From positions 384-64,383 of the forward strand of contig CAWJHT010000043.1 in assembly GCA_963842685.1 (NCBI GenBank): DNA of 64,000 bases, read 5' to 3'. This document shows positions 14,684 to 53,374 of the stretch, one piece after another. The translations under genes and the position numbers were made by a program. Source of the DNA: an uncultured delta proteobacterium (GTDB taxonomy: Bacteria > Desulfobacterota > Syntrophia > Syntrophales > UBA5619). The notes under the pieces are model-generated. The model was not told the DNA's origin and did no database searches. It saw nothing but the letters and a program-made list of their open reading frames with translations. Each line of letters begins with the position of its first letter. Positions within the stretch are counted from its first letter, which is position 1.

Positions 14684-14732
14684 GTTTCTAACCTCCTATA
14701 GAGTGGTTTCGTTCGCGAACCGGGCTTTGCCT

Positions 14733-16250
14733 TTAGCCCGTGATCCGCCGTTCCCTGAGCGCCTCTCTTAATTTTCCGATCGGGCGCTTCAATGCCATAT
14801 AGGCGATCATCAGCATCGTCAGAACCAGCAGCGTGCCGGCGATGGGCCTGTGAAGCATGGTCAAGAAACTGCCGTCGCATATGGTCAATCCCTGTACAAG
14901 CCCGCTTTCGATGGCCGGCCCGAGAAAAACCCCGATCGCCAAAGGCGCCAGCTCGAATCCGGCGATTTTCAGGAAATAGCCGAGTAACCCGAATCCGAGC
15001 AGCAGACCGAGATCGAAAACGCTGTAGTTGATGGCGTAGGCGCCGGTGAAGGTGATGATGGCGACGATGGGCATAAGGATGTGGAGCGGCACCTTGAGCA
15101 GCGAAGCGAAGACGCCGACCATGGGCAGATTCAGGACCAGCAGCATCAGGTTGGCCACATACATGCTTGCGATCAGGCCCCAGAACAGGTTCGGATTGGA
15201 AGTCATGAGCAGCGGCCCCGGCGAAATGCCGTGTATCATGAATCCGCCCAGTAATATGGCGGCCGAAGAGGAGAAAGGCAGTCCCAGCGACAGGAGCGGA
15301 ATCATCTGCGCTGAACAGGCGCTGTTGTTGGCCGATTCCGGCCCCGCCACGCCTTCTATCGCCCCGTTGCCCCATTCCTCCGGGTACTTGCTGATCCTTT
15401 TCTCGACCGAGTAGGAGACGAAGGTAGAAATCGTCGCGGTCGGACCGGGAACCAGCCCGATAAAAAAACCGAGAAAGCTGCCGCGCAGCATGGGTCCGAT
15501 GGATCGCAGCAGTTCGAGTTTGTTGGGGTACAAATCGCGGAAACGCACCTTGAAGACTACGGAATCCGCCGCCGGCCGGCTCATGGTCTGCAGAACCTCA
15601 CCCAGGCCGAAAATGCCCATGACCACGATAATAAAATCGATGCCGCGTTGAAGTTCGCTGACGTTGAAAGTCAGACGGTTGATTCCCATGATCGGGTCCA
15701 TCCCGATCGTGCCGATCATGACGCCGATGAACACCATCATACCCGAGCGCAGGCTGGATTTCCCGGACAGGTTGGAGAGCACGACCAGGCCAAGCACCAT
15801 CAAGGCAAAAAATTCCGGCGGCCCGAACTTGATCGCCGCGTCGGCCAGTATCGGAGCGAAAAAGGTGAGTCCAATCGTGCCGACGGTGCCTGCCACGAAC
15901 GATCCGATGGCAGCCACCGCGAGCGCGGCTCCGGCCCGCCCTTTCCTGGCCATGGCATAGCCTTCGATGCAGGTGACCACCGAGGCGCCTTCCCCCGGCA
16001 CGTTGACCAGAATGGATGTGGTTGAGCCTCCGTACATCGCGCCGAAATAAATCCCGCAGAACATGATCAGGGCCGACAAGGCGTCCATTCCGAAGCTGAT
16101 CGGCAGGAGCAAGGCAATGCAGCCGGAGATGCCCAGGCCGGGCAGCACTCCCGTCAGCGTCCCGATCACGGCTCCGAGCAGCGCCGCCAGCAGGTTCCAC
16201 GGGGTGATGCTGACCGCGAAACCCTGCATCAGTAGATCAAATGTCGGCAC
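14733..16250 (-). CDS. tctA: tripartite tricarboxylate transporter large permease TctA
   Basis: 505-aa polytopic membrane ORF (GVLPGLGISG.., GGSTTSILVNVPGEGASV..) lying between tctB and tctC. Confidence 0.9.
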   Translation of the reverse strand: MPTFDLLMQGFAVSITPWNLLAALLGAVIGTLTGVLPGLGISGCIALLLPISFGMDALSALIMFCGIYFGAMYGGSTTSILVNVPGEGASVVTCIEGYAMARKGRAGAALAVAAIGSFVAGTVGTIGLTFFAPILADAAIKFGPPEFFALMVLGLVVLSNLSGKSSLRSGMMVFIGVMIGTIGMDPIMGINRLTFNVSELQRGIDFIIVVMGIFGLGEVLQTMSRPAADSVVFKVRFRDLYPNKLELLRSIGPMLRGSFLGFFIGLVPGPTATISTFVSYSVEKRISKYPEEWGNGAIEGVAGPESANNSACSAQMIPLLSLGLPFSSSAAILLGGFMIHGISPGPLLMTSNPNLFWGLIASMYVANLMLLVLNLPMVGVFASLLKVPLHILMPIVAIITFTGAYAINYSVFDLGLLLGFGLLGYFLKIAGFELAPLAIGVFLGPAIESGLVQGLTICDGSFLTMLHRPIAGTLLVLTMLMIAYMALKRPIGKLREALRERRITG

Positions 16251-50542: not shown

Positions 50543-51169
50543 AAAAAACTCCTTTTTTGTTTTCCGGGTCGGATAGATCAATATCTCCGGATGGCTTATT
50601 CACGTTTTAGAGATGCGGCAAATATTCTCCCCTGTCAAGGGATATTCATCCGCTCGAGACCTCGCTGCACGGTTCGCCCTTGTTCACAACGCTGCAACGT
50701 CTCTGTCTTCGTCGGTGCGCTCGCATCGATGGGAGGTCTCGTCGTTTTTGGAATTGATCGTGTCATTATGATCTCCGTCCCGCTCTTGCCTTCGAGGCGC
50801 CGGTGCTGTCACAGGCCTGAAGCAAAGCGCCGAACCCCAGGCCGGCAATCGCAATCGCCCGCCGGGAAAATCCACCTGAAAATCGCCATCGGACGATCCA
50901 TACCACCTCCCTTTGCTCTACACGCGGTTTATTAGCAGAGTGGCAACGGACCCACAAGGGGAAAAACCGGTCGGAAGGAGCAGCCTTGCTCCAACGGCGG
51001 CATGCGCGGTCGGGACCGAGGCCTGTTCATCATCCCTATCATCCATTTTATAAATATGATACATAGGATACAGGCCTGATCGGCCGGTGGTACGCGGCGG
51101 CGCCGGGAAGGCGGGAAGCGGGAGCGGACCCGCGGATGATAAAAAAACGAACGAGATCGGAGGAATCAC

Positions 51170-51819
51170 ATGACGACGCCCAAAATTCTTCAAGTCTTTT
51201 CGGATTACGTCTGACCCTGGTGCTACTTCAGTACCGGGCGTATTGAAAAGCTGCGTGAGAACTTCGAGGTTGAAATCCAATGGAAGGCCTTTCCCCTCCA
51301 CCCCGACACCCCGGAGGAGGGGCTTTCCCTGGATGAGCTCTATGCGGGCCTGAATCTCGATCCCCGCGAGGTGAAGGCCCGCCAGAAGCGGGCGGCAGCG
51401 GAGCTGGGGCTGCCTCTCGGGGAGCGAACGATGACCTACAACAGCCGGCTCGCCACCGAGTTGGGCAAATGGGCGGAGAGCAAAGGGAAAGGGGAAGAAT
51501 TCCATAAGGCCGTTTTTCGGTCCTACTATGTCGACGGGAGCAACATTGCCAAACCCGACAAACTGATCGCACTGGCCGAAGAGGTGGGGCTTACCCGGGC
51601 GGGAAGCCGAGGAAGTCCTGAGAACGAGGGCATTCGGGAAGGCGGTCGACGCCGATTGGGCTCTTGCCGCCAAGCTGGGAATCTCGGCCATCCCGACCTT
51701 CGTCCTCGACGGGTGGTCCGTGGTGGGCGCTCAGCCTTACGAGACGTTGGAAAAACTCCTGCTGGACCACGGTGTAAAAAAGAGATTAAGTCCGTTGAAC
51801 TCAAGATGAACGGTTTCGG
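51170..51819 (+). CDS. DsbA/FrnE-like thiol:disulfide oxidoreductase with in-frame TGA (51212-51214) at the first Cys position of CxxC; also one frame break near 51598
   Basis: GGAGG RBS. MTTPKILQVFSDYV-TGA-PWCYF.. (family motif F.D..CPWCY), ..GISAIPTFVLDGW (cis-Pro loop), and C-terminus ..PYETLEKLLLDHG. Confidence 0.7.
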
Positions 51820-51834
51820 GGAGGAAAATTTCGC

Positions 51835-53374
51835 ATGAAAAGAGGGGTGCAGGCCGTTTTATGCCTGCTGTTCGTTTTTTTTCTGTCTATCCTAGCCCAT
51901 GCCCAGTCGCTGGATCTGCGCATACTCCATGTCAATGACTTTCACGGCTTTGCCGAAGCCTATAAACCGCTGGGGTCCCGTGAACTCCTGGGAGGGGTGG
52001 CACATCTCGCAGGCAAAGTCGGATCGCTGAGACAGGAAAAGCCGACGCTCCTGCTCGCCGCCGGGGATATGATCCAGGGGAACAACTGGGCCAATATGTC
52101 TCAGGGCGAGTCGGTCATTGAACTGATGAATGCCATGGAATTCGACGCCATGGTCCTGGGAAACCATGAATTTGATTTTGGGCAGGCGGTGTTGAAGAAA
52201 AAGAGTTTCCGAATCCGCTTTTCCTGTCCTCGGCGCCAACGTGGAGGGAGTGGATCGCCTCAAGCCTTTTATCATAAAGGAAATGGGTGGGGTAAGAGTG
52301 GGGATCGTCGGGATCGTGACCGAGGAGACTCCGGTCGCCACCCACCCCCGTAATGTCTCCGGTCTCAGATTCCTCCCTTCCGCCGAAACTGTAGAAAAAT
52401 GTTTGCAGGAATTGAAGAATAAGGCCGATATCATCATCGTCCTGTCCCATATCGGGCATGCGGCCGATCGGGCGCTCGCCGAGAAGGTGAAGGGGATCGA
52501 TGTTATTGTGGGCGGCCATTCGCACACCAAGATCCTGAAGCCGGTTCGGATCGGCGATACCTTGATCGTTCAAGCCTGGGAGCACGGCAAAGCGCTTGGG
52601 GTTTTGGACCTGACCATCCGGGAGGGAAGGATCGTCGGATATGACGGGCATCTGGAGGAAGTGAAACCGCAAGAGGGGAAAGAGGATCGGGGAATTCTGG
52701 CCATCGTTGAAAAATACAACCAGAAGATGGATAAGGTGTTAAATGCCCGCATCGGGGAAGCGGAAATCGATCTGGATGGGGAGAACGTAAGGAAAAGAGA
52801 GACCAACCTGGGAAATTTCATCGCCGATATCATGCGTCAGGCCTCGAAGGCGGACGCGGCCCTTATCAACGGGGGGACCATCCGGACGAATATGAGCCGG
52901 GGAGAGATCCTGGTGAAGGATGTCTATTCGGTCCTTCCTTTTGACAACTACATTGTGGCGATCAAGCTTATGGGAAAACAGATCGCCCAAGCCCTGGAGT
53001 ACGGGGTATCGGGGGTCGAGGGAGGGCAGGGGAGGTTTCCGCAGGTCTCCGGTCTGGCATTCAAATATTCCCCCTCCGCACCAAAGGGCAGCCGGATCAG
53101 AGAGATTCTGATCGCCGGGCAGCCCCTGGATCCCGACAGGGAATACACGGTGGCCACGAATGACTTTCTGGCGGCGGGTGGCGATGGGTATGGGACATTT
53201 GCGGAGGCGGTGAAATCCTCCAAAAACTTTTCAGCGGTCGGAGGCATGCTTCAAGGAGAGACTGTCGTCTACAGCGACAGCAGCCGGTGGCTTCGGGATG
53301 TGGTCGTGGAATACATCAGGGAAAAAGGAACGATTGCTCCCGGGAGAGAGGGAAGAATCAGGGAGGTACCCTGA
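51835..53374 (+). CDS. bifunctional metallophosphatase / 5'-nucleotidase (UshA-like); frame break near 52200
   Basis: Signal peptide. HVNDFHG, AGDMIQGN, LGNHEFDFG, GGHSHT. C-terminal domain ETNLGNFIADIM, INGGTIR, NDFLAAGGDGY. Confidence 0.85.

Follow-up and report, generated by a model that had tools for sequence, protein, structure and literature searches.

The in-frame UGA at codon 15 of a gene located at 51170-51809 (plus strand) very probably specifies selenocysteine (Sec), which would be inserted with the aid of a downstream SECIS hairpin (H2) into a 212-residue, presumably cytoplasmic FrnE/DsbA-like oxidoreductase (COG2761, Pfam DSBA). The gene resides on a stretch of 64,000 nucleotides (the window) from the metagenome-assembled genome (MAG; 107 contigs, 77 % complete) of an uncultured member of the Syntrophales. 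It is preceded by a Shine-Dalgarno sequence, GGAGG (51159-51163), which can be read directly off the sequence and is separated by a 6-nt spacer from the ATG at 51170, in agreement with the good ribosome binding site noted in a preliminary description of this DNA. Translation from this ATG yields MTTPKILQVFSDYV, the TGA at 51212-51214 and PWCYF, exactly as described there. Residues 1-15 (MTTPKILQVFSDYVU) lead straight into β-strand 1 with the motif UPWC. The predicted Sec (U15) occupies the first position of this U-P-W-C redox motif, and the resolving Cys18 is encoded by TGC at 51221-51223, its column being invariant in the protein alignment (A1).

The homologous reading does not continue in a single frame over about 200 further codons, as had been stated, since an extra A at 51593 causes a +1 frameshift. 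Past approximately codon 141, homology passes into frame +1, affecting the last ~70 codons: the C-terminal third in the ATG frame is nonsense (…GLTRAGSRGSPENEG…), whereas frame +1 provides the expected DsbA C-terminus (…GLPGREAEEVLRTRAFGKAVDADWALAAKLGISAIPTFVLDGWSVVGAQPYETLEKLLLDHGV…). The latter ends with ...LLLDHGVKKRLSPLNSR*, can be aligned with the orthologous C-termini and is free of Cys in its tail. The true stop is the TGA at 51807-51809 (frame +1 relative to the assembled ATG), while position 51819, formerly given as the end of the open reading frame, holds no stop codon. The gene thus comprises 212 codons plus stop, corresponding to 640 nt as assembled.

With the frames joined and U replaced by C, the translation matches PF01323 (DSBA) with 110.8 bits (cut-off 25.6; E=9.5e-32) across profile positions 2-190 of 191. 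Among solved structures, FrnE of Deinococcus radiodurans is closest (5cnw, E=2.4e-22, residues 7-199), followed by SCO1869 (3gl5, E=7.8e-16); structures of periplasmic-type DsbA match weakly and over residues 94-197 only (4pwp, E=2.5e-6). Hence, the earlier assignment to the DsbA/FrnE-like oxidoreductases is borne out. Among the NCBIfam models none scored above its cut-off, the best being that of the Rcas_1661 (seleno)lipoprotein (33 vs 190 bits). Inspection revealed no signal peptide, the Pfam match beginning at residue 7 and in-frame stops being located directly upstream in orthologues; lacking such a peptide, the product is predicted to be a cytoplasmic protein.

FrnE of D. radiodurans (PDB 5cnw, 5cp1, 5e59) shares the CPWCY active-site context and likewise has no signal peptide, but it contains Cys and consists of 260 amino acids including a C-terminal extension, whereas the protein described here has the predicted Sec, 212 amino acids and a Cys-free tail. 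The C-terminal extension of D. radiodurans FrnE carries a CxxxxC motif, which is absent from the C-terminus inspected here. Periplasmic DsbA (E. coli type, CPHC) has in common the thioredoxin fold, the inserted helical domain and a CxxC-type motif; it belongs to another subfamily, and differs from the present protein in that the latter has no signal peptide, starts β-strand 1 at residue ~5 and displays the UPWC motif.

The TGA had been proposed to replace exactly the nucleophilic Cys of the family motif, giving U-P-W-C, and conservation of this codon agrees with that proposal. A six-frame search of 60 related genomes revealed exactly one in-frame TGA, without frameshift, in all orthologues at 55-86 % identity, and all 18 readable translated orthologues of the same genus and family have TGA at the same codon (FSDY[IV]-U-PWCYFSTG); Sec-containing orthologues in related taxa, on which the proposal had been made to depend, are therefore present. 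In a scan with one genome per GTDB species, 78 of the best 80 loci have TGA and two have TGC. These 80 loci span Desulfobacterota, Nitrospiraceae and Acidobacteriota, their sources being Syntrophaceae, Desulfobacterales, Desulfatiglandales, Desulfobaccales, Nitrospiraceae, Acidobacteriota and Ca. Abyssobacteria, and include the cultured Desulfosarcina alkanivorans PL12 (orthologue in L131, with TGA). Both TGC loci (Planctomycetaceae and Betaproteobacteria) lack the hairpin sequence. The alignment with Cys- and Sec-containing homologues, suggested earlier as a check, places the TGA in one column with a Cys codon (TGC or TGT) in the loci L049, L096 and L114; two Cys-containing proteins (P0009 and P0011) are 63-64 % identical. 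Even in a distant clade (~30 % identity) with the motif U-P-F-C the first position is encoded by TGA, with a Cys form in one genome (G048). Alignment A2, ungapped and made up of 89 distinct sequences of the Sec form, has TGA in every one of them (89/89).

The alternative of a base-call error, raised in the preliminary description, is excluded by the invariance of the TGA across lineages and by four independent metagenome runs, which contain zero variants at 51212-51214 and whose contigs keep the TGA. Raw reads of the source sample could not be found (the stretch is represented in public runs by at most 0.25 of the sampled words), so that the TGA as well as the additional base at 51593 were checked only in related strains, i.e., in these four metagenomes. 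Together, the comparisons support the TGA as a genuine, widely conserved Sec codon at the nucleophilic position of a predicted UxxC motif.

With respect to the Sec-decoding machinery, the genome search proposed earlier recovered selA, selB and selD and left selC, the gene for tRNA-Sec, unaccounted for in the MAG. SelB (344 bits; G000:C46:33159-35061, minus strand), SelA (393 + 203 bits in two frames; G000:C22:13883-15257, plus strand) and SelD (392 bits; G000:C67:15308-16237, minus strand) all score above their cut-offs. The selA frame is split at about 14718-14728, and the C-terminal ~43 residues of SelB are matched in another frame; assembly indels are the probable cause of both breaks. SelD is a selenoprotein in its own right, with TGA at GAG-U-ACK (…VQGAG-U-ACKIGPGD…). 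Neither aragorn nor an Rfam search detected a tRNA-Sec in the 77 % complete MAG; near-threshold matches represent Ser and Leu tRNAs, the best Rfam match (46.6 vs cut-off 47) being a tRNA-Ser. Eleven of 14 other genomes of the genus contain a tRNA-Sec at 74-77 bits, and the flank of that of genome G009 matches contig C72 of the present MAG, which begins ~0.4 kb from the syntenic tRNA position. The simplest explanation for the missing tRNA-Sec is incompleteness of the MAG. On contig C41 (G000:C41, ~15275-15312), ~40 nt corresponding to the tRNA-Sec 3' end (T-arm, acceptor and CCA) were observed with no full gene adjoining; this fragment could be what is left of the attachment site of an element that had integrated into selC.

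One might argue that the TGA is not a Sec codon at all, but an ordinary stop or a sequencing error followed by a downstream start, or that an alternative code assigns it to Trp or Gly. Public records could be taken to favour this: those of the closest orthologues are mostly N-terminally truncated, starting at an internal Met or Val and comprising 173-183 amino acids with loss of the active site (named "predicted DsbA family dithiol-disulfide isomerase" or "hypothetical protein"), while three public proteins (P0005, P0028, P0055) show Trp in place of Sec (FSDYI-W-PWCYF), the TGA having apparently been translated with a TGA=Trp code. A downstream start would, however, remove the whole active-site motif and β-strand 1. 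Moreover, the 14 codons ahead of the TGA are under amino-acid-level selection in ~100 genomes: their amino acids are conserved, whereas synonymous sites are variable (Ser as TCN and AGY; Asp as GAT in 59 and GAC in 30 sequences), indicating that this N-terminal part and the remainder of the protein are translated in one frame. Nonsense mutations or errors should also turn up sporadically rather than invariantly across lineages. As to the genetic code, TGA is the commonest stop in the genome, ending 1652 of 2698 long open frames, and no in-frame TGA is present in SelA and SelB, which excludes genome-wide reassignment; the alternative-code reading was rejected on both counts. Overall, a stop, an error or another code is hardly credible as an explanation for this TGA.

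The additional base at 51593 raises the further question of whether the gene is a strain-specific pseudogene derived from a selenoprotein ancestor, in which case the frameshift would be real and the breaks in selA and selB would reflect loss of the Sec trait. In accord with this, the frameshift lies inside the gene itself, SelA is spread over two frames, the SelB C-terminus lies in another frame than the remainder of SelB, and tRNA-Sec was not found in the MAG. Against it stands, on the one hand, the absence of the base elsewhere: nucleotide alignment with three orthologues (L021, L022, L023) places it at 51593 (GGGCTT-A-CCCGGG) and shows it to be missing from all three, every contig spanning the site in four unrelated public metagenomes (runs X1-X4) has one base fewer at 51591-51593, and a public protein of 97 % identity (P0112) is uninterrupted across the site. 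On the other hand, frame breaks occur assembly-wide. When the uninterrupted ORFs contained in 80 kb of two genomes of the genus were compared with the MAG by tblastn, ~17 distinct frame junctions appeared within ~24.5 kb of coding DNA that aligned with >=70 % identity, i.e., ~0.7 per kb. Nine breaks fall into the trp-operon part of the window (~55.7-61.9 kb), and the adjoining 5'-nucleotidase gene is split as well (51835-52353 and 52241-53374, overlapping at 52241-52353), as are selA and the 3' end of selB. The breaks in the trp region are located at approximately 55682, 56908, 58973, 59648, 59854, 61142, 61464, 61629 and 61912. Since the MAG is so rich in indels and the four independent metagenomes lack the base, the frameshift at 51593 almost certainly arose from faulty assembly. 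The pseudogene reading, rejected because the breaks are not confined to Sec genes and the base is missing in four metagenomes, is very improbable. The abundance of indels calls for caution with any ORF-level oddity or other finding in this window.

The remaining question concerns the element that would direct Sec insertion at the UGA. A 9-bp hairpin with the loop ACUUC (H1, 51216-51238) had been proposed to lie roughly where a bacterial SECIS is expected. Overlapping with it, a second hairpin, H2, is found at 51227-51247 (UUCAGUAC-CGGGC-GUAUUGAA), with an 8-bp stem, the first paired base 12 nt past the UGA and the apical loop CGGGC (51235-51239) beginning 20 nt past the UGA. The minimal SECIS element of E. 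coli has an 11-nt gap before the stem, which the 12-nt gap of H2 resembles. Across the 89 Sec-form sequences of A2, covariation in H2 amounts to 0.128 compared to 0.077 in shuffled alignments, and none of 500 shuffles is as high; the same holds true (0/500) for the percentage paired and for the two double-change counts, the number of further pair types being unremarkable (247/500). Pair 30-40 stays intact throughout (U-A in 75 sequences, C-G in 14), pair 28-42 occurs as A-U (82), G-C (4) or G-U (2), and pair 32-38 as C-G (88) or U-A (1); pair 29-41 is unpaired in 49 of the 89. On a rapidly built protein tree, pair 30-40 is found as C-G at no fewer than seven distinct points and pair 28-42 as G-C at three. 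Synonymous sites within H2 are frozen (TTC 89/89, ACC 84/88, GGG 74/77, CGT 74/74, ATT 66/70), whereas the flanking codons vary freely (GAT 59/GAC 30, TAC 47/TAT 42, Leu and Arg with all six codons). The consensus structure determined by RNAalifold is H2. In the U-P-F-C clade, a 7-bp hairpin of different sequence with the loop GGGCA is present at the same 20-nt spacing.

H1 does exist as a fold, in line with its first description, being part of the minimum free energy (MFE) structure with a ΔG of -13.2 kcal/mol. This energy is not beyond chance: the H1 region has a z-score of -1.03, and 28 of 200 shuffles fold as well. Folding energy alone is thus uninformative for the SECIS here. That H1 rather than H2 is the functional SECIS would be favoured by its place in the MFE structure and by the 89.5 % of alignment cells (A2) in which it can pair. 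However, its covariation does not exceed that of shuffled alignments (0.066 each; 247 of 500 shuffles as high), and its pairs 21-29 (central) and 15-35 are broken in 52 and 25 of the 89 sequences, respectively. The 5' arm begins 2 nt and the loop 10 nt past the UGA, outside the range of the bacterial SECIS model, and the loop contains no G; the proximity of the loop to the UGA and its lack of an obvious G-U motif had already been recognized in the preliminary description. In addition, H1 leaves the fixed synonymous sites at 51229 (TTC), 51241 (CGT) and 51244 (ATT) unexplained. With the UGA in the A site, the 5' arm of H1 would be located inside the ribosome, which further argues against this hairpin. 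For want of covariation above shuffles and in view of its loop and spacing, H1 was rejected as the SECIS, a role we regard as unlikely for it.

Compensatory changes, conservation of synonymous sites and the choice of RNAalifold together argue for the overlapping downstream H2, rather than H1, as the likely SECIS. The bacterial SECIS model specifies a loop of 3-9 nt with G in the two leading positions, 4-16 bp for the stem, 16-37 nt for the spacing and an MFE <= -7.5 kcal/mol (PMC13188914). H2 conforms to it in loop (CGGGC), stem (8 bp) and spacing (20 nt) and narrowly misses the energy rule, since on its own it folds at -6.8 kcal/mol (H1, -13.2). Like the SECIS of E. coli fdhF and the bSECISearch consensus, H2 is an intra-ORF hairpin located shortly 3' of the UGA, and its small apical loop has, as in the consensus, G-G in positions 2-3; H2 differs from them by the absence of a bulged U, the MFE above the threshold and the more stable overlapping H1. 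An Rfam scan of 51150-51330 yielded no SECIS match, the hits being at chance level (best, pemK with E=0.94).

A ~50-nt island (51204-51255) was observed in the four metagenomes, to which many short contigs from different organisms align with a summed depth of 80-100 compared to ~6 elsewhere; the alignments break off at ~51197 and ~51248. This depth peak reflects cross-phylum nucleotide conservation of the segment harbouring the UGA and the proposed SECIS.

Taking H2 as the SECIS, the in-ORF hairpin would bind SelB-GTP-Sec-tRNASec and thereby direct recoding of the UGA. A ribosome positioned at the UGA should already have unwound H1, leaving H2 free to fold at the mRNA entrance. One may speculate that H1 and H2, overlapping and mutually exclusive, constitute a ribosome-driven switch, in which H1 sequesters the 5' arm of the SECIS in free mRNA; H2 would then bind SelB only after the ribosome has melted H1, rendering SelB recruitment strictly co-translational. 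Such a switch appears rather doubtful at present. In the U-P-W-C active site, Sec15 is expected from the family to act as the nucleophile that attacks a substrate disulfide; dithiol/disulfide exchange would proceed via a Sec15-Cys18 selenenylsulfide, with Cys18 resolving the intermediate. By analogy to its relatives, the protein most likely functions as a general or stress-related dithiol-disulfide oxidoreductase or isomerase.

The genomic context gives no hint to a pathway partner or operon, since the flanking genes are not conserved among the orthologous loci: none of the four flanking ORFs (a lactonase-type propeller, a 114-amino-acid ORF and the two 5'-nucleotidase halves) recurs beside 98 such loci. 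Downstream, at 51835-53374, a secreted 5'-nucleotidase/metallophosphoesterase (Metallophos and 5_nucleotid_C domains) is encoded; its N-terminus is signal-like (MKRGVQAVLCLLFVFFLSILA), and its start is located 25 nt past the stop of the selenoprotein gene.

DsbA-like proteins with UxxC (COG2761) were recognized as a selenoprotein family in the Sargasso Sea data (Zhang, Fomenko & Gladyshev 2005, PMC1088965) and reported for Anaeromyxobacter, Desulfovibrio desulfuricans and Desulfotomaculum reducens (Zhang et al. 2006, PMC1794560), and a 2026 review lists "DsbA-like protein form 1" with PF01323 and UxxC (PMC13188914). This form, known from anaerobic deltaproteobacteria (Anaeromyxobacter, Desulfovibrio and Olavius symbionts), possesses Cys homologues as well as a SECIS-like hairpin a short distance downstream, and Syntrophus aciditrophicus is listed without a DsbA-like selenoprotein (PMC1088965, PMC1794560, PMC13188914). 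The earlier remark that DsbA-like selenoproteins have been predicted in anaerobic and marine bacteria is thus correct. The gene described here has the same Pfam domain, UxxC with Sec in place of the first Cys, Cys homologues and a nearby hairpin, with no essential difference from form 1. It is another member of "DsbA-like protein form 1, UxxC", known since 2005; the U-P-W-C orthologue group of Syntrophales and Desulfobacterales is not individually named in the literature found on DsbA-like selenoproteins.

At the level of the kind of protein, the finding therefore adds nothing new to the biology of DsbA-like UxxC selenoproteins, catalogued since 2005. It does indicate that nearly all close orthologues in the Desulfobacterota and neighbouring phyla are Sec forms, and their public records need correcting. 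It also provides the DsbA-like family with a proposed SECIS supported by covariation and distinct from the thermodynamically obvious hairpin. If the switch described above were true, H1/H2 and the ~50-nt cross-phylum island would represent a distinct, family-specific class of bacterial SECIS.
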